A stretch of DNA of 32,000 nucleotides from Akkermansia muciniphila ATCC BAA-835. GTDB taxonomy: Bacteria > Verrucomicrobiota > Verrucomicrobiia > Verrucomicrobiales > Akkermansiaceae. The stretch spans positions 750,001 to 782,000 of the forward strand of contig NC_010655.1 in the NCBI RefSeq assembly GCF_000020225.1, written 5' to 3'. The notes below the pieces were generated by a model that saw only the letters and a list, made by a program, of their open reading frames with translations, ran no database searches and was not told the origin of the DNA. The translations under genes were made by a program, and so were the position numbers. Below, piece after piece: positions 16-23,577 of the stretch. Within the stretch, counting starts at the first letter, position 1. Each line of letters opens with the position of its first letter.

Positions 16-1239
16 GTGAGCAAGGGCAGGGTTCTCATCGTTACATATGTTTTTCCTCCGGAGGAAGGAGGCGTAGGCATGGCTGCCTATGAAATGGCCT
101 GCAGCCTGAGCTCCCTGGACTGGGATATCCACGTCCTCACCCGCCCGCTGGATTCACCGGATGAGTCCTTCCGCTCCCACCAATACAGCCCTCTCACAAC
201 CCTGCCGGACACCCTGACGAAGGACAGTGCCCGTTTAAGGGAATACCTGGACGGGTTTCTGAAAGATTTCCGGCCGGATGTTATTATCTACCACTCCTGG
301 GCGGACTGGTGCCGGGAAGAATTGCTGGACGCGGCACGGGATTCAGGCATTCCGTTTTTCCTCCGCTCCCATGGTGCAGCTACCAATTTCCGCTCTTTTT
401 TCCGCTTCAATTACCCTCCTTTCTTCGGCCTGAAAAAATGGCTCTGCTCCTTTTTTCAAGTACGCAGGGATATCCTCAACGTATGCCGGAAATCACCGTT
501 AAACCGTCTCGTTTTTCTCGATCCTTACGGGACACTGTTCAAGAGCTTTGATTATTACTGCGCATCCAGAAGCAAACTTGCCCATTACTCCTGCATTCCC
601 AACACATTCCCGGCTCTGAAAAGAACCGCTCCTTTTTTCCGGGAAAAATACGGACTTTCCTCCGCCCCCGTTTTTACCTGCCCTGCCGGCGCCAGCATGA
701 GGAAACGGCAGCTTCTCTTCATCCGCCATGTGAAACGCTCCCGTCTGCGGCATATCATTTTTCTTTTTCTGATTCCCCAGCACAATGCCTACGCGGAACA
801 AATGGAACAAGCCATCGGGGATGACCCCAGATTCAGGATTCTCTACAGGCTCCCCCGTTTGGAAGTAGAAGCCGCCATTATGGAAAGCGATGCCGTTTTC
901 CTTTACTCTTATCAGGAACAGCAGCCCCTCTCCATTCTGGAGGCGATGTCATGCGGCGTTCCCTGGTTCGCTCCGGACGCAGGAGCTCTTTCCACCCTGG
1001 AGGGGGGAATCGTCCTGAAAAACACTTCCCCCTCCGTGCTGGAAAAAGCCGTGGAATCGTTGACGGACGAAAAAACACGCAAACTACTGGGGAGTAAAGG
1101 CCGCCGGCAATGGGAAGCCTGTTTCGCCCCCGACGCAGTAAACCAGGAATGGGAGCAACTGCTTTTTTCCTCCATCCGCCCGGAAGGAAAGCCTCCGTTC
1201 GCGTCTTCCATCGTCCGGGAGCATTTACCCACCTGCTAA
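16..1239 (+). CDS. Glycosyltransferase, GT-B fold (family 4/1-like)
   Basis: 407-aa ORF with a GTG start. The N-terminus RVLIVTYVFPPEEGGVGMAAYEMA is a typical GT4 N-domain opening. The C-terminal QQPLSILEAMSCGVPWFAPDAGALSTLEGG matches the conserved EAM-x-G-x-P nucleotide-sugar binding region. Confidence 0.75.
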   Translation: MSKGRVLIVTYVFPPEEGGVGMAAYEMACSLSSLDWDIHVLTRPLDSPDESFRSHQYSPLTTLPDTLTKDSARLREYLDGFLKDFRPDVIIYHSWADWCREELLDAARDSGIPFFLRSHGAATNFRSFFRFNYPPFFGLKKWLCSFFQVRRDILNVCRKSPLNRLVFLDPYGTLFKSFDYYCASRSKLAHYSCIPNTFPALKRTAPFFREKYGLSSAPVFTCPAGASMRKRQLLFIRHVKRSRLRHIIFLFLIPQHNAYAEQMEQAIGDDPRFRILYRLPRLEVEAAIMESDAVFLYSYQEQQPLSILEAMSCGVPWFAPDAGALSTLEGGIVLKNTSPSVLEKAVESLTDEKTRKLLGSKGRRQWEACFAPDAVNQEWEQLLFSSIRPEGKPPFASSIVREHLPTC

Positions 1240-1261
1240 CCTTGCCTCCTCTTTCCAATCC

Positions 1262-2407
1262 ATGCCGATCAAACGCCTCCGTCCCGTATTAGCCATAGCA
1301 GCGGACCTCCCTCTGGGCCGGCTGCTGACGTCTTTCCGTAATAAGGACCGGCGTACGATTCCCTGGATTTTTTCCCTTTTTCATGCTCTGGAATCTCAGG
1401 AAGATTTTGACATCCACTGGATCACCCTCAGCAAAGCCGTTTCTGCCCCGGAAACCATCCGGATGCGCAACCAGACCATCCACATTCTTCCCCTGGGCAG
1501 CATGGGCAGGAATATCCTGACGGCCCATTTCCTGACCGTCCGGAGAATACGCAAGACCCTGAACGATATCCAGCCGGACCTCCTGCACGTATGGGGCGTG
1601 GAGCAGGCTTACGCTCTGGCGGGGATTGCCTTCCGGGGAAAGAAGCTCCTTTCCTACCAGGGAGCCCTCACCGCCTACTGCCAGCGCGCTCCGCAGGCCT
1701 TCCTCCTCCATATGCAGGCCCTCTGGGAACGGATGGCCGTCAAACATTATGATCTTATCACGTGCGAATCCCCCTGGGCGTGCGGCCGCGTTGCGGAAAT
1801 TGCCCCCCATGCCCGTCTATCCTGCATGGAATACGGCGTGGAACCTTCCTTTTACCATCTTGCCAGAAAACCTTCCCCGGAACCTTCCTGCCTCTTTGCC
1901 GGAACCATTTACGAGTTGAAGGGCATTTCCTACCTGGTGGAGGCCTTTACGCATCCGTCCCTTTCCCATGTCCAGCTGTTCATTGCGGGCAACGGAGCCC
2001 TCAGGGAAAGGCTGGAAGCCCTGTCCACTCCCAATATCCACTGGCTGGGCAGCATTTCCCGCGCAGAACTTCAGCAGCACCTTTCCACGGCGTGGTTCCT
2101 GGTGCATCCCACCCTGGGGGATTGCTGCCCCAACATCGTGAAGGAGGCAAGAGTCATGGGCCTTCCGGTAATCACCACGGAAGAAGGCGGACAGACTCAA
2201 TATGTTCAGGACGGCGTATCCGGCTATATTGTCCCTGTCCGCAACAGCGCCGCCGTCAGGGAAGCCGCGCAGAAACTTTCCGTCAGCCTGGATAAAGCCA
2301 TGTCCATGGGAATGGAGCGGCATCAGGAATGCCGCCGCCTGCTGGACGTAAAGCAGACAGTAACCGGGTGCCTGTCACGTTATCATACCATGCTGTATCC
2401 ACGCTGA
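1262..2407 (+). CDS. Glycosyltransferase, GT-B fold (family 4/1-like)
   Basis: 381-aa ORF lying 22 nt after the previous gene. The C-terminal domain motifs are PNIVKEARVMGLPVITTEEGGQTQYVQDGVSGYIVP, the typical GT1/GT4 pattern (E-A-x-x-G-x-P-V-I ... G-x-x-E-x-V-x-D-G-x-x-G). Confidence 0.8.
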   Translation: MPIKRLRPVLAIAADLPLGRLLTSFRNKDRRTIPWIFSLFHALESQEDFDIHWITLSKAVSAPETIRMRNQTIHILPLGSMGRNILTAHFLTVRRIRKTLNDIQPDLLHVWGVEQAYALAGIAFRGKKLLSYQGALTAYCQRAPQAFLLHMQALWERMAVKHYDLITCESPWACGRVAEIAPHARLSCMEYGVEPSFYHLARKPSPEPSCLFAGTIYELKGISYLVEAFTHPSLSHVQLFIAGNGALRERLEALSTPNIHWLGSISRAELQQHLSTAWFLVHPTLGDCCPNIVKEARVMGLPVITTEEGGQTQYVQDGVSGYIVPVRNSAAVREAAQKLSVSLDKAMSMGMERHQECRRLLDVKQTVTGCLSRYHTMLYPR

Positions 2408-3024
2408 TGAAATTATTCCTTATCCATCTGCTTTCCGGGATAGGCCGCCTGCTGCTCAGGCTCAGGGGGGTGCGCACCGGAACAGGCATCATTCTTTCCG
2501 GATTTCCCCTCATTAAAAAATTCCCGGGAGCGTCCATCACCATCGGCAACGGAGTCACCATCCACTCCCTGACCCGGATGAATCCGGTACTTTCCCATCA
2601 CACCTGCCTGGCCGCCCTTTCCAATCAGGCAAGCATCATTCTGGAGGACGGCTGCGGCATCAGCGGAGCCACCCTGGTCTGCGTCAACGGCATCCGCATC
2701 GGCCGCCACACGCTGATAGGAGCAGACGCGCTGATTCTGGACAACGACATGCACTATCCCCGGAGCGGCGCCAGGTGGGGATCAACCCTGGGACAGCCCG
2801 AACAGGGACAACCCATTTCCATCGGGGAAGGATGCTTCATCGGCGCCAGGGCCACCATCTTGAAAGGAGTCACCATCGGCTCCGGTTCCGTAGTCGCCGC
2901 AGGAGCCGTCGTCACCCGGGATGTGCCTCCCGGCTGCCTGGCCATCGGAAATCCCGCAGTAAATAAACCGCTCCCCGAACGTCTCAAACATCCCCGGGAA
3001 ACACAAAAAGCCATCTGCCCTTGA
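2407..3024 (+). CDS. Hexapeptide-repeat (left-handed beta-helix) O-acetyltransferase, WbbJ/WcaF/Maa-like
   Basis: The ORF track opens at 2329. ATG 2407 overlaps the upstream TGA by 1 nt (TGATG) and gives MKLFLIHLL..., which I take as the start. Imperfect hexapeptide repeats are present: ITIGNGVTIHS, GCGISGATLVCVNGIRIGRHTLIGADALIL, ISIGEGCFIGARATILKGVTIGSGSVVAAGAVVTRDVPPGCLAIGNPA. Confidence 0.8.
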   Translation: MKLFLIHLLSGIGRLLLRLRGVRTGTGIILSGFPLIKKFPGASITIGNGVTIHSLTRMNPVLSHHTCLAALSNQASIILEDGCGISGATLVCVNGIRIGRHTLIGADALILDNDMHYPRSGARWGSTLGQPEQGQPISIGEGCFIGARATILKGVTIGSGSVVAAGAVVTRDVPPGCLAIGNPAVNKPLPERLKHPRETQKAICP

Positions 3025-3070: not shown

Positions 3071-4174
3071 ATGACACCGCAAAATCCTACAATTTTATTA
3101 CCCTCATCCCGGGAACATTGGATTGACATATCCCGATTCCTCGCGGCATGCCTGATTGTATGCGTCCACGCGCCGGCCTTCTCTTTCGCCAGCCTGTTCC
3201 AGCTTCCGGTTTTCAACGGCCGCGTGGCATTTTTCCTGATTCTGGCAGGCTATTTCATGGGCCGGAATAATTCCTGGAACAAAGCGTTCAAACGGGGTTA
3301 TACGCTTCTCATTCCCTTTCTGTTCTGGAATATAGTCATCTCTTTCCTCCATCCGGGAATCATGAATATGGGACTGCCGGAATACTTATGCAACCTTGCA
3401 GGCTTCCGCTCCCTTTTCACTCCCGATTTTATTCCTCTTTCCATCAATGGATTGACGGGAGAACCCTTTTCCCCTCCCACATGGTTTTTGAGGGATATCA
3501 TTCTCTGTTCCCTCATTTCCCCCATCCTGCTGAAATTGAAATATCCGGTTTTTGTCCTGATCCTGATCTGCTTCAGCACGGACTGGCTCCAATACCCCGT
3601 GCCGGCCAACAAGATTACCCTTGCTCCATCCACCGTCTCCCTGTTCAGTCTGGGCCTTTTCCTGTCTTCCATCAAACTGGCTGAAGTAAAACACGTTTAC
3701 AAAAATTCCTTTACTCCCCTCGTTCTGCTCGCCGTAGGAACCGGGTTTCTGCTCAGCATCACCAATTACTTGAGCGTTTGCCAGAATAACCCGGAATGGA
3801 ACATGCACAAAATACTGGCATCCTATGGAGTATGGAATATCTCCTGGCCGGCTGTCCGTTTGAATTCCCTCTGCCCAGTCTTCGGGGCGCTTCTTCTCAT
3901 GACCCTTGGAATCTGGCTGGAAAAGAAAATTCCCGTTGCCAGAAAGCTGTCCAACTATGCTCCCGCCTGTTTCCTGATATTCGTTCTTCATTATCCTTTG
4001 ATCATGCTGATCCCCTCCCACATCTGGAAACAATCCTTTTTCGCTCCCTTTGTATTAATACCGGCCATCATTTTCCTGATCGTCGCATTCTATCTTTTCC
4101 TGAGAAAATTCTTCCCGGCCTGCCTGCCCTACGTCGCCAACGACCGCATCACCCATGTTCCCAAAAAAAATTAA
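3071..4174 (+). CDS. Integral-membrane acyltransferase family 3 (AT3; OafA/OatA/Oac-type acyltransferase domain)
   Basis: 367-aa ORF that is hydrophobic throughout, with about 10 predicted TM segments. The N-terminal HWIDISRFLAACLIVCVHA resembles the conserved AT3 opening (R/H-x-x-x-ID-x-x-R ... V-x-x-x-H). Confidence 0.8.
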   Translation: MTPQNPTILLPSSREHWIDISRFLAACLIVCVHAPAFSFASLFQLPVFNGRVAFFLILAGYFMGRNNSWNKAFKRGYTLLIPFLFWNIVISFLHPGIMNMGLPEYLCNLAGFRSLFTPDFIPLSINGLTGEPFSPPTWFLRDIILCSLISPILLKLKYPVFVLILICFSTDWLQYPVPANKITLAPSTVSLFSLGLFLSSIKLAEVKHVYKNSFTPLVLLAVGTGFLLSITNYLSVCQNNPEWNMHKILASYGVWNISWPAVRLNSLCPVFGALLLMTLGIWLEKKIPVARKLSNYAPACFLIFVLHYPLIMLIPSHIWKQSFFAPFVLIPAIIFLIVAFYLFLRKFFPACLPYVANDRITHVPKKN

Positions 4175-4895
4175 GGCCTGTATCCTCTTTCTTCTTTTAA
4201 CCGTTCCGGCCGCATTAGGCGCCGTCTGGTGCGCCAAACACGCCTACCGCTACCATTTGGCTGTCCATCCCCTTCCCTATTCCCCGGAACAGGGCGCCCT
4301 GCTGGAAAAACACCGGCAGGACAAACGCAATGCCCGGCTGAATCCCCATGCCCCCGTGTTGTTCCTGGGTTCCTCCACCATGGAATTCTGGCTGAAAGAA
4401 GGGAAACATTCCTGGGAAACCTGGTTTTCCCCTCTGGGATGCCTCAACCTGGGAACCAGGAGCGAGACCACGGGCAACCTGCTCTGGCGCCTCAATGACG
4501 GCCTGACAAGCCCGCTGGCGCCCAGAATCATCGTCCTGTATTCGGGAGTCAACAATCTGGGAGTACAAAAAAGCCTGGGATGGACGGCTTTTCAGGGAAA
4601 CGTGGCCATCGTCAAAAAAATCAGGGAGATTTACAGCCCGGAAACGACCGCCATCATTGTCATTCCCCCGCTCATCGCACAAAAAGGGTCGCGCATGGAA
4701 ACCTTCAGGAATTGTCTGCTGCAACACGACTTTGGAGAAAATGTCCATGTCCTCCCCCTCCATTTCTTCCTTCCGGGAAAAGACGCCAGCCTTTATACTT
4801 GGGACGGCCTCCATCTCAACGCCCTGGGATATGAAGCCATTTCGCCTCCGCTTTTCCGCTTCCTCCAACAGCTTTTAAGCAGGAGCAGCTTTTAG
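4155..4895 (+). CDS. Exported SGNH/GDSL-family hydrolase or acyl-esterase
   Basis: 246-aa ORF with an N-terminal signal-anchor, ACILFLLLTVPAALGAVWCA. All four SGNH blocks are readable. Block I is LFLGSSTMEFW, block II is LNLGTRSETTGN, block III is YSGVNNL, and block V is DGLHLNALGY (D-x-x-H). Confidence 0.75.
   Translation: MFPKKIKACILFLLLTVPAALGAVWCAKHAYRYHLAVHPLPYSPEQGALLEKHRQDKRNARLNPHAPVLFLGSSTMEFWLKEGKHSWETWFSPLGCLNLGTRSETTGNLLWRLNDGLTSPLAPRIIVLYSGVNNLGVQKSLGWTAFQGNVAIVKKIREIYSPETTAIIVIPPLIAQKGSRMETFRNCLLQHDFGENVHVLPLHFFLPGKDASLYTWDGLHLNALGYEAISPPLFRFLQQLLSRSSF
4163..4170. repeat. A8 homopolymer inside the AT3/SGNH ORF overlap
   Basis: The sequence reads catgttccc-aaaaaaaa-ttaagg. The tract lies between the SGNH start codon (4155) and the AT3 stop codon (4172-4174). 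Confidence 0.95.
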
Positions 4896-4936: not shown

Positions 4937-5863
4937 GTGATGATTGAATCTTCTCCACCCCATCAGGCAACACTTCCCATGACCCTGTTTCTGGCAGGTC
5001 CCACCGGATCGGGCAAATCCGCGGTAGCCGTGGAACTGGCGGAGATGCTGGACGCAGAAATCGTCAGTTCCGACGCTTACCAGGTGTACCGGGAGCTGCC
5101 CATCCTGACGGCGGCGCCTTCCCCGGCAGACCGGGAACGGGTCCCCCACCACATGGTTTCCATCATTCCGGTCCAAAAGAACTGGAATGCCACGGAACAC
5201 TACCACCGCGCCATGCGCTGCATGGAAGAAATTCACGCACGCGGAAAAATCGCCATCGTCACGGGCGGTTCCGGCCTGTACTTCAAATTCCTCTCCCACG
5301 GCCTGTCGGAAGCGCCGCCGGGGGACGCTGCTCTCCGCGCCGCTTTCGCGAACTGTTCCACGGAAGCGCTATACGCCAGACTCTCTTCCCTGGATCCGGA
5401 AGGAGCGGCCTCGACGGATGCCTCCAACCGGCGTTATGTGGAACGCAATCTGGAAATCGTCCTTGCCGGAGGAAAACCTCTTTCCTTCTGGAAGAGGAAC
5501 TGGTTGACCCCGCCGCGCGGGCCCGGCTGGGTCATCAGCAGGGATGTTCCTGAACTGGACGAAAGAATAGCCCACCGTGCCGCACGCATGATGCAGGAGG
5601 GGGCCGTGGAGGAAACGGCTTCCCTCGGCCCATGCTCCGCCACAGCGGAACGCACCCTGGGCCTGGCGTTGATACGAAGCATGCTGCGCGGGGAAATCTC
5701 CCGTGAAAACTGCCAGGGCCAGCTGGCCCTCGCCACCCGGCAATACGCCAAACGGCAGCGCACCTGGCTGAAACGCGAACAATGGCTCCGGAAACTTCCG
5801 GCTTCCCCTTCCGACTCTCCCCGGGCTCTTGCAGAACGCATCATGGAAGAACTGGGGCATTAA
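4937..5863 (+). CDS. miaA: tRNA dimethylallyltransferase (i6A37)
   Basis: LAGPTGSGKSAVAVELAEMLDAEIVSSDAYQVYRELPILTAAPS is the canonical MiaA P-loop plus SxDxxQxY motif. The start could be GTG 4937, ATG 4940 or ATG 4979. Confidence 0.9.
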   Translation: MMIESSPPHQATLPMTLFLAGPTGSGKSAVAVELAEMLDAEIVSSDAYQVYRELPILTAAPSPADRERVPHHMVSIIPVQKNWNATEHYHRAMRCMEEIHARGKIAIVTGGSGLYFKFLSHGLSEAPPGDAALRAAFANCSTEALYARLSSLDPEGAASTDASNRRYVERNLEIVLAGGKPLSFWKRNWLTPPRGPGWVISRDVPELDERIAHRAARMMQEGAVEETASLGPCSATAERTLGLALIRSMLRGEISRENCQGQLALATRQYAKRQRTWLKREQWLRKLPASPSDSPRALAERIMEELGH

Positions 5864-7449
5864 TCCCTCTTCACACGGCGGTAAATATCCAAGTTCGTCA
5901 CTTCTCTGAAAAAGGATCGTTCCCGGCAATATTCCGTACTTAGCAAATCCCGCATAGCCCTCAGGGAGGGAGATTCCGTGTTGTCCGGCTTGAAGTATTC
6001 TCCCGCTATCACCACATAGTCTATCTTTCCGCGGCGGATTTCCTGATACTGACGCATCCTTTCCCGTTCTGCACCCTGTTTGTCGGAAGCGCAAATCGTA
6101 AACGTGCGTATGGGCGGCACCAAACCATTGACACAGTAAAACCATACGGCATGCCGCCCAAGGACTGCACAAGCATTCTCCCCCTCCGGTTCATCACTGG
6201 TATCTGGAAGAGCAAAAGCGGACATCCATTCGCGGGCGCGGCTTCTGCATGAAAAATCCACGCAATTCAGGAAGGTGCAAGCCATCACTCCCGCAACAAC
6301 CAGAGGAAAAAGCCATCGGCGCCACTTTCGGGAAACAACCTCTTCCACATGGATCATCCTGGCCACCACCAGGTATCCCACAGCAGCGAAGGGAATAAGT
6401 GTCTGGGCGTAATGGTTGAAATGCGTCTTTCCATTTCCCTGGACGCCCATGCAGGTAATCAGAAAAGCGGCTGTATAATAAATCTTTTCCCTGGCGGGCA
6501 TCCGGCTTAAAATCACCCCCGCTCCTCCCACGATGTACATCAACATGCTAGGATACATGATATCCCTTTTCACCCATTGGGAATAATTCCGGCACATCTC
6601 CTTGAACGATACCGCATCGGCGCCGTAACCGGCATTAAAAACAATGTATCCTTCATATAAATCCAGCAACGCGCCGCGGCTGTAAAAATACCAGAGGCAG
6701 GGCGTCAGCATCAACAGGAGCGTTCCTCCCACGCTTCCTGTAAAAATCCATGCCTTCCCGGTCATCCGCGCACGATACAGGACATACAGGAAGGGAACGA
6801 ACCAAAAAGCGGCCAAGTTGAATTTCAACAGAAGCGCCATCCCGATGCCCGCGCCAAACACCACGCCCGTTCTTACGAAGCGATCGGGATCCCGATACAG
6901 GCGGCACACTCCATAAATCGCGGCAAACTGGAAAGGCAGAATAAATTCGGAGGGATGACCTCCTCCTGCATAATAGTGGAAACTGCACATGGAATAAAGG
7001 ATGAGCAGCGAAACGATAAACGCTTTTTTTCCAGATACGAAGAGAAGTGCCGCCTTGTAACAAAAGATCATGGAGGCCGTCACTGCGAATACCTCAAGAA
7101 CGAATACAAGCCAGTAAGAACCACACAAGGCGTAGGAAAAGCCATATATCAAAAAAATGAAGGGCCCCTTTTGATCAAACAAATCCCGATAAGGCATCAA
7201 CCCTTCCATCATTCCGCGTCCCATGAGATGATAAATAATGGGATCACAACTTACGGGAATTTCATAATAGGGAGACACATAACTGGAATAATAACAAATC
7301 AGAAATGAGAAAATAGACCACCATGCAATACAACATCCATTTACCCTATTACAACGAAACATTTTTATATGGGTACGGATTTGGAATCCGTAGCTTTTTT
7401 CCAGGTGGCCTCCGTTCTCCGGCAGACTGAAATCATCAGACCACCGCAT
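5860..7449 (-). CDS. Polytopic membrane glycosyltransferase, GT-C fold (ArnT/PMT-like, GT39/GT83-type) with a soluble C-terminal domain
   Basis: 529-aa ORF with more than 10 hydrophobic segments. The first-loop motif PYRDLFDQKGPFIFLIY resembles the D-x-KPP/GP loop of ArnT/PMT_2 proteins. The start is uncertain. ATG 7362 (MFRCNRV..., 500 aa) is an alternative, and the first 29 codons overlap a palindrome and an SD-preceded small ORF. The gene is visibly more A/T-rich than its neighbours. Confidence 0.6.
   Translation of the reverse strand: MRWSDDFSLPENGGHLEKSYGFQIRTHIKMFRCNRVNGCCIAWWSIFSFLICYYSSYVSPYYEIPVSCDPIIYHLMGRGMMEGLMPYRDLFDQKGPFIFLIYGFSYALCGSYWLVFVLEVFAVTASMIFCYKAALLFVSGKKAFIVSLLILYSMCSFHYYAGGGHPSEFILPFQFAAIYGVCRLYRDPDRFVRTGVVFGAGIGMALLLKFNLAAFWFVPFLYVLYRARMTGKAWIFTGSVGGTLLLMLTPCLWYFYSRGALLDLYEGYIVFNAGYGADAVSFKEMCRNYSQWVKRDIMYPSMLMYIVGGAGVILSRMPAREKIYYTAAFLITCMGVQGNGKTHFNHYAQTLIPFAAVGYLVVARMIHVEEVVSRKWRRWLFPLVVAGVMACTFLNCVDFSCRSRAREWMSAFALPDTSDEPEGENACAVLGRHAVWFYCVNGLVPPIRTFTICASDKQGAERERMRQYQEIRRGKIDYVVIAGEYFKPDNTESPSLRAMRDLLSTEYCRERSFFREVTNLDIYRRVKRD
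7374..7392. promoter_or_regulatory. Perfect 8-3-8 palindrome TACGGATT-TGG-AATCCGTA (operator-like or 5' hairpin)
   Basis: Read directly from the sequence. It lies 12 nt upstream of the alternative ATG (7362) of the GT-C gene on the minus strand. Confidence 0.6.
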
Positions 7450-7491
7450 TCTGAAAAACTGAATATGCCATTGAACAACAATTTTTTAGTT

Positions 7492-7530
7492 AATACCTCC
7501 TCATCTTTCCTCATCACGGAAATACCTCCT
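7492..7530 (-). repeat. Two exact copies of AGGAGGTATT (minus strand) spaced 29 nt apart
   Basis: On the plus strand AATACCTCCT occurs at 7492-7501 and 7521-7530. The distal copy places a perfect AGGAGG 7 nt before a GTG and 10 nt before an ATG on the minus strand. Confidence 0.8.
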
Positions 7531-7628
7531 GAAAAAAAATGAAGGGCCTTACCTCTCCATATTCCAGCTTCCTGTTTAAAGAGGTGGTAAATTAATTATA
7601 ATACTTTTTTCTAATTTATTATATTGAC

Positions 7629-7647
7629 TACGGATTCCAAATTCGAT
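7629..7647. promoter_or_regulatory. Second, half-degenerate copy of the same motif: TACGGATT-CCA-AATTCGAT
   Basis: 14 consecutive nt (TACGGATTCCAAAT) equal the reverse complement of the 7374-7392 copy, and 16 of 19 positions match overall. It sits in the AT-rich divergent intergenic region. Confidence 0.5.
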
Positions 7648-7835
7648 TTCAGGGAATGTGATTAAAAATCAAAAGCCTCCCGGATCGACCGAATCATATT
7701 CCGCATCAGGGACCGGATGCCCCATTTCCACGCTTTTTGTCTTGGCTTACGGAAACATCTTTGGTTTACAGGGTCAGGCGGCAAAGCCTTTCTCAAAGCG
7801 GTCCGCCTTATCACCCCCATATCTTTTCCAGCATC

Positions 7836-15312: not shown

Positions 15313-17412
15313 ATGATCACGATCACGAAGTCCAGATTTGCCAGAAGAAGCCTCGTCCTGTGCGGCCTGGCGGGCGCGGCGGTCATCTGGCTGATGTTGT
15401 CGCTGGTCAATCTCCAGCTGGTTTCCCCCCGGAAAACGAGCGGCGTTTCCAGCGGCGGCATTATTGAACGGGAGGTTCTTTTGCCCCAGCGCGGCCGCAT
15501 CATGGACGCCAATGAGGAAATCCTCACCAGCAACATGCAGAGCTCCGAGCTGATTGCGGACGGCTATCATCTGAACGACCCCAAGACCATCAGCTGGGCT
15601 CTGGCCTATTCCAAGGCCGTCCATTCCCCGTTCTGGGAGAAAGCCGCAACGGATAAGGAAAAGGAAAAGCTCGTTTCCGGCTTCCGTAGCAAGATTCTGG
15701 GCCAGGCCGCCAGCAAAAAGGACGGCAGCAAGGAACATAATCTGGCGAAAATCCTGCTGGAAGAGCCTGAAGACGGACCGGAAGGGGTAGATATGGCCAG
15801 AAAAAAGCTGGAAGAGCTTTATGAGCCGGAGATGGTGAAAGAATACGTGCAGGCGCACCTGGAATACGCCGCCAAAGTGATTGCCCCTTTCCTGCCGGAC
15901 ATGAGCGTGCAGGACATCATCAACACGGTGGAAAAAGACGGGGCGATTCCCAAGAAGCGCATCGTCATTGCCAAAAACCTGTCCGAGGAAAAAGCGGAAC
16001 TGCTGCGGCAGGCTATCCAGAACGCCCGCGTCCAGGGGTTCCGTTTTGAGACCTCCTCCAAACGCGTCTATTCCGTGCCGGAATGCATGGTGCATATTCT
16101 GGGCTACATCGCCCAGACGAAGGACAGCGGCCCCCGGCCCATAGCCCTTTCCGGCCTTGAAAAGCAGCTGGACGACCAGCTGCTGGGCCACAACGGCATC
16201 AGGGAATACCGGAAAGACAGCCGCGGGCGCATCATTCCCTCCGCGGATTCCCGCTTCAAGGATGCCGTGGACGGGCTGAACGTGCGCCTGACGGTAAACA
16301 TGGAATACCAGACGATCGTGGAGGAGGAGCTGGACGCCGCCATCTCTTTTTACACGGACCAGACCCACAAACCCCGCGGCTGCATTATTGTGGTGGAACC
16401 CAAGACCGGCAGCATTCTGGCGATGGCCAGCCGGCCCCACTATAATTTAAATACGCGCGAGGGCCTTCAGGAAGGCGCCTACCATTTCGCCGTGCAGTCC
16501 CTGTACGAACCCGGTTCCACCTTTAAAATAGTTTCCGTCACATCCGCCGTGGACAGCGGAAAGGCCACGTTCGACACCATGATCAACTGCACCCCTTATC
16601 CGGTGCCCGGTTCCCGCCCCGTCACGGACGCCCCCCGTTCCTATGGCGGCCTGACCGTAGCGGGCGTGCTGAAAAAATCCAGCAACCCGGGCGCCTTCCG
16701 CATTGCACTGAAATCGGGTTGGCCCACGTATAAAAAATACTTTGACCTGTACGGATTTTCCTCCAAAACGGGTATCGACCTGCCGGGGGAAACCAACAGC
16801 CAGTGCCAGGACGGCAGCAATTTTGTCAACTTTTCCCGCATCAGCTTCGGCTACTCCCTGATGGTGTCCCCCCTGCAGGTCGCCATGGCTTATGCCGCCA
16901 TAGCCAATGACGGCGTGCGCATGCGCCCCCGGCTGGTTGACGGCATTTATGTGGATGACAGAAACTTCCAGCCTTCCCCCCCCGTGGAGGTATGCCGGGT
17001 CATGAGCGTCAAGACGGCCCGGGACCTTCGGAACGCCCTGTTCCACGTTACGGATCTGGACGGGACCGCCAAAAGAGCGCGGGTTGAAGGCTATAACGTG
17101 GGAGGCAAAACCGGAACCGCCCACAAGGTGAAGCCTACAGGCGGCTATTTTGAAAACCGCTACACCGTCTCCTTTGTAGGAATGCTCCCGGTGGAGGACC
17201 CGGCCTTCGTCTGCCTTGTCGTCATTGACGACCCCACTTCCAAGCATTGCCATCCCGGAGGCGGAACCGTATGCGCCCCGGTCTTCCAGAAACTGGCCAC
17301 CCGCCTGGCGGCCGCCATGAACATTCCTAAGAACGTCCCTTCCGCAGAGGCAAATAAAAAAGCCTCCCGTGCCCAGGCCTCTTCCACCCCATCCAAACCG
17401 CCGCGCAGATAA
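15313..17412 (+). CDS. ftsI: Peptidoglycan D,D-transpeptidase (class B PBP, FtsI/PBP3-type)
   Basis: It has an N-terminal TM segment and the three transpeptidase motifs: SxxK (EPGSTFKIV), SxN (KKSSNPG) and KTG (GGKTGTAH). Its position in the dcw cluster fits. Confidence 0.9.
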   Translation: MITITKSRFARRSLVLCGLAGAAVIWLMLSLVNLQLVSPRKTSGVSSGGIIEREVLLPQRGRIMDANEEILTSNMQSSELIADGYHLNDPKTISWALAYSKAVHSPFWEKAATDKEKEKLVSGFRSKILGQAASKKDGSKEHNLAKILLEEPEDGPEGVDMARKKLEELYEPEMVKEYVQAHLEYAAKVIAPFLPDMSVQDIINTVEKDGAIPKKRIVIAKNLSEEKAELLRQAIQNARVQGFRFETSSKRVYSVPECMVHILGYIAQTKDSGPRPIALSGLEKQLDDQLLGHNGIREYRKDSRGRIIPSADSRFKDAVDGLNVRLTVNMEYQTIVEEELDAAISFYTDQTHKPRGCIIVVEPKTGSILAMASRPHYNLNTREGLQEGAYHFAVQSLYEPGSTFKIVSVTSAVDSGKATFDTMINCTPYPVPGSRPVTDAPRSYGGLTVAGVLKKSSNPGAFRIALKSGWPTYKKYFDLYGFSSKTGIDLPGETNSQCQDGSNFVNFSRISFGYSLMVSPLQVAMAYAAIANDGVRMRPRLVDGIYVDDRNFQPSPPVEVCRVMSVKTARDLRNALFHVTDLDGTAKRARVEGYNVGGKTGTAHKVKPTGGYFENRYTVSFVGMLPVEDPAFVCLVVIDDPTSKHCHPGGGTVCAPVFQKLATRLAAAMNIPKNVPSAEANKKASRAQASSTPSKPPRR

Positions 17413-22776: not shown

Positions 22777-23577
22777 ATGAAAACGACCAAGACACCTGAT
22801 CACAATCCGACCGGACGCACCCGTCCGAAACGCAAAATGGGCACCGTACTCCGCGCCAAACTCAGCAAATACCGCGCCCGCGTCTCCGAATTTGAAGATG
22901 ACGCGCCCAGCAGCACCGTCGTGCGCTGGCTCGTCGTCCTTCTTCTTCTTCACCTTCTCGTCATCGGCGGCGTTTACGTCCGCAGCACCTGGTTCAGAAA
23001 CACGGCGGAAACCGTAGAAATGGCAGCCGCCCTGCCCGCGCCGCCCACCGTCCCGCAACGCCCCGCTCCCGCAGCGCCCCCGGCCGCTCTGCCCCAGGTT
23101 CCCCAGGCCCCCCCCGCAGCCCCGGTCACCATCACGCAGCCGGAACAGGTAGTGGACGCTCGCCCCAACAGGCAGCCGGCCCCTGCGGTGGAGGAACACA
23201 TTCCGGATGCAGCCCCGGTGGCAGGTCCTGCGCGCCACATCGTGCGCACGGGAGATACCTGGGAACGCGTCGCGCGTGACAACCAGGTGGCCGTCAATGA
23301 CCTGAAAGCCGTCAATCCCAAAGTGCAGCGCCTTGTCAGCGGAAGCACGCTCGTCATTCCGGCCCGGCCAGGAGACAAATTTGAACCGGAAAAGTCCGCC
23401 GCGGAGGAATTGGAGCCGGAAGGCGTGCCCCACATTGTGAAGAAAGGGGAAACCCTCTCCGTAATCGCCCGCAAATACAAAATGAACTGGCGCACCCTTC
23501 AGAAATTCAACAAGATGAATGACCGGGACGTAGCGCGTCTCAAAATCGGGCAAAAAATCATGATCCCCAAAAAGTAG
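22777..23577 (+). CDS. Bitopic membrane protein with a Pro-rich linker and two C-terminal LysM domains
   Basis: 266-aa ORF. It has a basic N-terminus and a TM segment (VVRWLVVLLLLHLLVIGGVYV). A linker of about 65 aa is rich in P, A and Q (ALPAPPTVPQRPAPAAPPAALPQVPQAPPAAP...). LysM1 is HIVRTGDTWERVARDNQVAVNDLKAVNP...STLVIP. LysM2 is HIVKKGETLSVIARKYKMNWRTLQKFN...IGQKIMIP. Confidence 0.75.
   Translation: MKTTKTPDHNPTGRTRPKRKMGTVLRAKLSKYRARVSEFEDDAPSSTVVRWLVVLLLLHLLVIGGVYVRSTWFRNTAETVEMAAALPAPPTVPQRPAPAAPPAALPQVPQAPPAAPVTITQPEQVVDARPNRQPAPAVEEHIPDAAPVAGPARHIVRTGDTWERVARDNQVAVNDLKAVNPKVQRLVSGSTLVIPARPGDKFEPEKSAAEELEPEGVPHIVKKGETLSVIARKYKMNWRTLQKFNKMNDRDVARLKIGQKIMIPKK

Follow-up and report, generated by a model that had tools for sequence, protein, structure and literature searches.

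We analysed a 32,000-nucleotide (nt) window of the Akkermansia muciniphila ATCC BAA-835 genome (contig NC_010655.1, positions 750,001 to 782,000; coordinates below are those of the window) and, within it, a pair of overlapping genes, one for an acyltransferase-3 (AT3) membrane protein and one for an SGNH/GDSL protein with a membrane anchor. We observed that a run of eight adenines (A8) lies in the short segment that the two open reading frames (ORFs) share. We consider it likely, with a probability of roughly 80%, that this is a genuine two-gene AT3 plus SGNH system, in which the A8 is stable and is not a switch, and in which the SGNH anchor plays the part of transmembrane helix 11 (TMH11) of fused enzymes. 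What we observed in support of this reading is the sequence itself, the domains, the predicted catalytic residues, a stable tract and a split that relatives conserve. The features concerned are as follows.

3071..4174, plus strand: AT3 membrane protein gene, 367 aa (ORF and translation, Pfam PF01757)
4155..4895, plus strand: SGNH/GDSL protein gene with N-terminal membrane anchor, 246 aa (ORF and translation, Pfam PF13472)
4155..4174, plus strand: 20-nt overlap of the two ORFs, SGNH being in the +1 frame relative to AT3
4163..4170, plus strand: A8 run in the overlap, encoding K-K-(N) of the AT3 tail and (P)-K-K-(I) of the SGNH n-region
4176..4235, plus strand: codons of the hydrophobic anchor ACILFLLLTVPAALGAVWCA, 20 residues, the SGNH signal anchor and counterpart of TMH11 in fused AT3-SGNH proteins
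4374..4376, plus strand: codon for Ser74 (block I, LFLGSS), predicted to be catalytic and aligned to Ser47 of platelet-activating factor acetylhydrolase (PAF-AH) Ib alpha by phmmer
4803..4814, plus strand: codons of the predicted catalytic Asp217-x-x-His220 (block V, DGLH), aligned to D-Y-L-H of PAF-AH Ib alpha and invariant in alignment A3

Positions 4150-4179 read ...cac cCA TGT TCC CAA AAA AAA TTA Agg cct.... The AT3 ORF ends cat gtt ccc aaa aaa aat TAA (HVPKKN-TAA; stop at 4172-4174), and the SGNH ORF begins ATG TTC CCA AAA AAA ATT AAG (MFPKKIKAC). Removal of one A from the run gives a continuous 607-aa AT3-TM-SGNH ORF (TM, transmembrane segment) that reads ...THVPKKIKACILFLLLT..., and the junction peptide of this A7 fusion protein is ..ITHVPKKIKACILF.. 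(which includes HVPKKIKAC). A preliminary description of this DNA had reported the same coordinates, ORF ends, 20-nt overlap and A8 at 4163-4170, all of them accurately, and the fused protein of about 607 aa that it predicted for A7 is borne out by the open frame. It had offered four explanations: a phase-variation switch, a sequencing error, ribosomal frameshifting, and a genuinely split, translationally coupled pair. The stable A8 and the conservation of the split in relatives support the last of these, and the two genes are probably coupled.

ATG 4155 is the sole in-frame start between an upstream stop (4101) and the membrane anchor, and no Shine-Dalgarno-like sequence precedes it. A promoter and terminator scan between the two genes gave nothing above chance, and RNA folding at the junction gave no significant structure (z = -0.28).

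The AT3 protein is identical to A. muciniphila ACD04477.1, annotated as 'acyltransferase', and matches Pfam Acyl_transf_3 (PF01757) with an E value of 3.9e-21 and 75.9 bits, against a cut-off of 31. The match spans residues 16-340 and profile positions 2-320 of 326, so that the whole domain is present, and a hydropathy scan showed about 9-10 hydrophobic segments before residue 345. Carbohydrate AT3 acetyltransferases are marked by R/K-X10-H in TMH1 and by the F and G residues of FFXISG, with H25, F41 and G46 being the invariant positions in OafA (PMC7448272). Here we found R22-X10-H33, F55..G60 (FFLILAG at 54-60) and K71-x-x-K74-R75, with the R22-X10-H33 and F55/G60 residues invariant in our alignments A2 and A3. 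The spacing of five residues between F55 and G60 is that of OafA, an agreement in motif spacing and not in a direct alignment with OafA. In an AlphaFold2 model of the fused form, built from an 11-sequence alignment, the AT3 half is a helical bundle with a model confidence (pLDDT) of about 40; we used the SGNH half alone, in Foldseek searches, and drew no conclusions on TM packing or AT3-SGNH contacts.

The SGNH protein is identical to ACD04478.1, annotated as 'GDSL-type esterase/lipase family protein', and matches Pfam Lipase_GDSL_2 (PF13472; E 3.3e-11, residues 70-228); NCBIfam assigned neither protein to a family. Its N-terminus consists of a basic n-region and then the 20-residue hydrophobic anchor, which lies about 40 residues before block I, has a Kyte-Doolittle peak of 2.28 (residues 369-387 of the fused protein) and aligns with the TM segment IVILCCIVIVCIGVGSVA of a naturally fused relative, P0005. 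No canonical lipobox was found in this N-terminus (..GAVWC/A..). SGNH blocks I, II, III and V are intact: in the alignment with PAF-AH Ib alpha, Ser74, Gly100 (LNLGTRS), Asn134 (GVNN) and Asp217/His220 fall on its catalytic residues, giving the protein a Ser-Asp-His triad together with the oxyanion-hole Gly and Asn blocks. The nearest solved relatives of the domain are PAF-AH Ib alpha subunits (sequence E 1e-11; fold TM score 0.75-0.80), followed by sialate O-acetylesterases, and PatB is a marginal structural match to the SGNH model (7tjb, E 0.024, TM score 0.53; Foldseek). OatA and OafB chains were found neither at E<=1 by sequence nor in the top 50 Foldseek matches of the SGNH half. PF13472 was the only Pfam match, with none to the AT3-associated SGNH type (PF19040/PF14606, with an OafB-like extension and extra helix).

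Tract length and conservation of the split

We counted tract lengths in assemblies, which are consensus sequences, using a public assembly collection, Logan contigs and JGI/ENA metagenome contigs. In the assembly collection, 9,754 indexed blocks, complete genomes included, contain the split AT3 protein in its exact form, and at 10/10 of its listed locations the two genes are separate. The exact SGNH protein occurs on at least 1000 contigs and is likewise called as a separate 246-aa gene in 10/10 of the genomes and contigs listed. By exact-protein look-up, the A7 fusion protein was found on 12 Logan contigs and the A9 variant on 2; set against the 9,754 blocks with the exact AT3 allele, the 12 A7 contigs amount to ~0.1%. 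Next to these look-ups, a pattern scan of the JGI/ENA contigs that allowed 5-11 bases between the flanks returned 59 contigs, 58 with A8, one with a substitution, CAAAAAAA (C4A7), and none with a change in length. Together with contigs L021, L022 and L094-L096, these matches form a length-unbiased pool of 64, comprising 62 A8, one C4A7 and one A7. The single A7 (L095) comes from run series ERR4562xxx, which also gives other broken genes. The comparison of tract length and ORF status across strains that the preliminary description had suggested therefore came out with A8 and the split form prevailing.

We also assessed the quality of the contigs that carry A7. Other private 1-nt indels were present within 5-8 kb in 9/11 A7 contigs vs 17/72 A8 contigs (Fisher p = 3e-4). 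Typically a base is lost from a T6, G6, A5 or T7 run, which splits a gene for a glycosyltransferase or for tRNA modification, and housekeeping genes are often among those broken.

Relatives were found by exact-protein look-ups and exhaustive HMMER searches, and a search of GTDB species genomes with the A2 profile gave 6 loci, 2 of them informative. Akkermansia lineages with AT3 proteins of 82-85% aa identity keep the 20-nt overlap at constant total length and frame relation. The overlap is shared by the sister lineages L028/L029, L030 and L031, and the sister-lineage tracts read ATGTTCCCCAAAAAAATTAA (C4A7, L030), ATGTTCCCCCCAAAAATTAA (C6A5, L028/L029) and ATGTTCCCCAAAAAAAATAG (L027), taking the forms C4A7, C6A5 or C4A8+TAG. 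A 51%-identity relative (P0011/P0077, L033) is also split, with a 17-nt overlap from which the long run is absent. The SGNH subfamily is small, with 10 clusters at E<=1e-30 in an exhaustive HMMER search with the SGNH protein. One deeper member, P0083 (SGNH 38% identity; L097), is split behind the AT3 C-terminus with a 4-nt ATGA overlap and a different frame relation. An overlapping stop/start arrangement recurs in all split relatives, and on these sequences the split is the commoner state and is deeply conserved. One further relative, P0012 (L034), has no adjacent SGNH gene. The P0005/P0078 lineage carries the two domains in one protein, and the alignment that the preliminary description had proposed runs continuously through the junction, with a 4-residue insertion only.

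As for the origin of the run, 0.14 A runs of at least 8 are expected in the 32-kb window from independent draws at its composition, vs 2 present. Local Lys codons are AAA in 75 cases vs AAG in 34, and Lys-Lys pairs are written AAAAAA in 6/9, so the excess of long A runs can be attributed to AAA-preferring Lys coding. In the deeper relative L097, whose stop/start overlap lies in the region 355-385, an A8 of its own is found just inside the SGNH gene, wholly within the codons ATA AAA AAA ATT (IKKI), which indicates that the A run goes with the Lys-Lys motif and is independent of the gene junction. Judged from codon usage, the A8 is most readily understood as a by-product of Lys-Lys codons ahead of the SGNH anchor, tracking the n-region and not the gene boundary.

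Competing explanations and a proposed mechanism

The best-surviving alternative, improbable in our estimate, is recoding, in which a +1 ribosomal shift on the A run, or the omission of one A by RNA polymerase, would produce some fused protein from the A8 template. On CCC AAA AAA AAT TAA, tRNA-Lys could re-pair after a +1 shift, with a product identical to the A7 protein. Conservation of the site is lacking, however: in sister lineages C breaks the run and A5-A7 remain, the 51% relative has no long run in its overlap, and the 38% relative has the ATGA overlap and a different frame relation. Runs of ~8-9 A do support some transcriptional slippage (A8 in human apoB, A9 in bacterial genes), but in most bacteria selection against slippage is evident from 9 nt and not from 8 (PMC1088944). 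In a related lineage the two domains are functional as one fused protein; the SGNH ORF here starts from a conserved ATG of its own and encodes a complete signal anchor, and neither a stimulatory Shine-Dalgarno-like sequence upstream nor significant RNA structure was found. Programmed frameshifting combines a conserved slippery site and frame relation with stimulators, and this combination is absent. The ribosomal frameshifting proposed earlier thus finds no supporting feature at the junction, and the frame relation itself differs in L097. Since A runs of this length can slip, a small amount of fused product may nonetheless be made from the A8 template.

Slipped-strand phase variation, in which a change in A8 length would switch between split and fused (A7) forms or alter the AT3 tail (A9), is less probable still. 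It has precedents in the species: homopolymer slippage occurs at G9 of Amuc_1413 (PMC13055324), and a further site has been suggested at C10 in the acyltransferase gene Amuc_2098 (PMC3048395, PMC13343947). Yet in 1000 generations of type-strain evolution, in which slippage at the Amuc_1413 G9 was recurrent, no change was reported at the AT3/SGNH locus (PMC13055324), and the genome paper listed as phase-variation candidates only tracts of at least 9 nt (PMC3048395). The exact A7 and A9 alleles in public assemblies would fit a switch, but their rarity, the absence of length variants from the 59 pattern-scan contigs and the enrichment of A7 contigs in other single-base indels do not. A contingency locus is expected to be polymorphic among strains and to keep its repeat as a repeat in related lineages. 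At the A8, 1/64 differs in length and comes from an error-prone run series, and sister lineages have C4A7, C6A5 or non-homopolymer junctions in its place with the split retained. Other loss-of-function alleles at the locus speak for a switch, but both the split and the fused state would plausibly be functional, which leaves no ON/OFF logic.

A poly-C tract nearby (poly-G on the coding strand) serves as an internal comparison. It lies at 6180-6187, ~2 kb downstream, within the minus-strand ORF 5860..7449 (PF27757, Ccs4_N-like). The window has an interrupted form, CCCCCTCC, and other Akkermansia contigs have C8 (15), C7 (4), C5, C9, C10 and C11; in C7 alleles the gene is called frameshifted, as 65 + 446 aa. 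Its length differs in 5/34 contigs unselected for any tract, vs 1/64 at the A8. Since poly-C variation is readily visible in the same contigs, assemblies do capture real homopolymer polymorphism, and the A8 shows none. The poly-C at 6180-6187 is the better candidate for phase variation, and the earlier suggestion of a switch at the A8, a run that is not conserved, goes unsupported.

That A8 is a sequencing or assembly error, the true genome being A7 with a single fused gene, is refuted: homopolymers are a classic source of indel errors and the fused frame is fully open, but A8 is found in every complete genome examined, in 58/59 metagenome contigs and in the 9,754 blocks, thousands of independent assemblies from several sources and technologies, and the split extends beyond the homopolymer to lineages with other junctions.

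Several points weigh against a genuine, stably split two-gene system. Two A7 contigs, L012 and L020, are otherwise indel-free, and the adjacent runs ERR3857517 and ERR3857518 are both A7, so a few A7 alleles may be genuine sporadic mutants. Assemblies give a consensus, with which minority slippage in a population or in mRNA is compatible. The P0005/P0078 lineage (605-614 aa, about 50% identity) is truly fused, which makes the fused form viable in the family. With its low pLDDT, the AT3 half of the model cannot be relied on, and we infer the translational coupling, the physical partnership of AT3 and SGNH, and the substrate.

With these points in mind, a genuine two-gene system might work as follows. 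The two genes would be carried on one transcript with glycosyltransferase genes. The AT3 gene would give a 10-TM acyl-transporter and the SGNH gene a separately translated, membrane-anchored periplasmic protein. Ribosomes that end AT3 translation at TAA 4172-4174 may re-initiate 17-20 nt upstream at ATG 4155, resulting in coupled synthesis; such coupling is suggested because this ATG is the sole start, has no Shine-Dalgarno-like sequence and belongs to a type of overlap that recurs in split relatives. The same bases, read in two frames, supply both a basic cytoplasmic AT3 tail (..PKKN) and a basic SGNH n-region (MFPKKIK..). The division between the proteins coincides exactly with the cytoplasmic loop ahead of TMH11 in fused enzymes of the OafA/OatA type, and the SGNH anchor would act as TMH11. 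AT3 would then relay acetyl from cytoplasmic acetyl-CoA outward, and the predicted SGNH triad Ser74/Asp217/His220 would transfer it to, or trim it from, a surface glycan.

Bacterial transmembrane acylation has been reviewed as either MBOAT plus a separate SGNH protein, or AT3 fused to SGNH (PMC12148441), and the partner of standalone AT3 proteins has been called 'as yet unknown' (PMC9833829, PMC9558356). The literature searched yielded no account of an AT3/SGNH pair that is split, which is not proof of absence. A bolder version of the two-gene reading, which we hold only tentatively, is that the pair is a working two-polypeptide AT3 plus SGNH O-acetyltransferase and an example of such an 'unknown partner'. 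The A8 would be a one-step evolutionary hinge, the rare clean A7 alleles (L012, L020, ERR3857517/8) would be real and viable fusions, and slippage of a single base would interconvert split and fused forms in nature.

The outcome is largely deflationary for the A8, which is neither a contingency switch nor an assembly error, and the two genes should keep their separate annotation. The residual novelty is modest and consists in a conserved natural two-polypeptide AT3 plus SGNH system that is one base from a fused form. With its split pairs, a fused sister lineage at ~50% identity and the one-base difference, the subfamily could be used to test acetyl relay from AT3 to SGNH in trans.

Neighbouring genes, other homopolymers and altered alleles

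The genes upstream of the pair form a block on the same strand (16..3024).

16-1239 and 1262-2407, plus strand: GT4 glycosyltransferase genes (Pfam)
2329 or 2407 to 3024, plus strand: hexapeptide-repeat acetyltransferase gene (Pfam; partial NCBIfam matches, WcaF/WbbJ-like)

This block (GT4, GT4, hexapeptide acetyltransferase) is a glycan-biosynthesis context, and the gene order upstream of AT3/SGNH recurs in other genomes. The downstream neighbour of the pair is miaA. Over this 7-kb stretch the window has 100% identity to several complete genomes. The surface glycans of A. muciniphila are of current interest, among them the lipooligosaccharide (LOS), which in the type strain carries 2-O-acetyl fucose (PMC11436972). 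As pointers to the target glycan, the GT4/GT4/hexapeptide context and the acetylated LOS fucose are only suggestive.

A second A8 run in the window, at 7532-7539, is apparently intergenic (no ORF of at least 150 aa lies over it) and is A8 in 9/10 covering contigs and A7 in 1. G/C runs are the tract type that has been shown to slip in A. muciniphila (PMC13055324), and long G/C homopolymers inside long ORFs of the window are C8 at 16976-16983, C8 at 23108-23115 and G8 at 24302-24309, with G7/C7 at 14692, 22739, 23827 and 24800. At the poly-C tract, contigs L011, L018 and L019, which are all the A7 contigs that cover it, have expanded forms (C9, C11 and C10, respectively); they derive either from homopolymer-error-prone runs or from a slippage-prone background (a mutator, e.g. 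mismatch-repair-deficient). The segment of ~5890-7715 with the Ccs4_N-like gene is absent from L005, L009, L013, L016 and L020, in which miaA is directly followed by the tRNA-methyltransferase gene; this segment is a strain-variable insertion/deletion.

Other strains carry loss-of-function alleles of the pair. In P0008/P0009, a cluster of 27 members, AT3 is frameshifted near 3910, and two in-frame deletions (3960-4370) between the short repeats YAP..HAP and AVH..AVH join the AT3 N-part to the SGNH core (P0068, 477 aa; P0071, 471 aa). Fragments of SGNH of 171 aa were found on 43 + 22 contigs. The A8 is involved in none of these changes, and the decayed alleles suggest that the modification is dispensable in some backgrounds.

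Comparison with known acyl-transfer systems

The preliminary description had likened the A7 form to the fused OafA/OatA architecture. This holds for the AT3 with its predicted 10 TM helices, the extra TM helix, the external SGNH domain and the alignable fused homologue; it fails for the SGNH domain itself, which is PAF-AH-Ib-like and not of the OatA/OafB type. OafA and OafB (Salmonella O-antigen) and OatA (Staphylococcus peptidoglycan) share with the Akkermansia pair an N-terminal AT3, with 10 TM helices predicted for the pair, that has the R/K-X10-H and F..G motifs (PMC7448272). Also shared are a glycan gene context, an extra TM helix and, outside the cytoplasm, an SGNH domain whose triad is Ser-Asp-His, and a fused homologue of roughly 600 aa is present in the pair's own subfamily. 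These enzymes are single polypeptides joined through an 11th TM helix, whereas in Akkermansia two ORFs in different frames encode the halves as separate polypeptides, with the break in the cytoplasmic loop ahead of that helix. Lacking the defining fusion, the pair does not belong to the fused AT3-SGNH class. The Akkermansia SGNH domain, PF13472, resembles PAF-AH Ib in both sequence and fold, unlike that of OatA/OafB, and only about 40 residues separate its block I from the anchor. In addition, by inferred alignment the Akkermansia AT3 has an Asp (ANDR) at the place of the Glu after TMH10 that has been reported as invariant; the corresponding residues in the fused relative are ANER.

Standalone AT3 proteins (Oac, WecH, IcaC, Lag-1) are, like the Akkermansia AT3, AT3-only polypeptides of 340-370 aa with cytoplasmic termini; unlike them, the Akkermansia AT3 invariably has an SGNH gene overlapping its 3' end. 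Among the tracts of the species known or proposed to slip, the Amuc_1413 G9 and the proposed Amuc_2098 C10 are likewise mononucleotide runs at the terminus of a surface-glycan gene. They are G/C runs of 9-10 nt, and the G9 changes length in evolved clones and in about 4/100 genomes (PMC13055324), whereas the AT3/SGNH run, an A8, is practically constant in length, and its alteration would fuse the genes and not switch them off.

PatA/PatB, AlgI/AlgJ/AlgX and DltB/DltD likewise combine a membrane acyl-translocator with a separate anchored or periplasmic SGNH protein encoded by adjacent genes (PMC12148441). Their membrane partner is an MBOAT and that of the Akkermansia pair an AT3, and no Ape-like esterase gene is adjacent to the pair. 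In conclusion, the AT3/SGNH pair is in its architecture an OafA/OatA-like enzyme in two pieces or, equivalently, a PatA/PatB-like system with an AT3 in place of the MBOAT.

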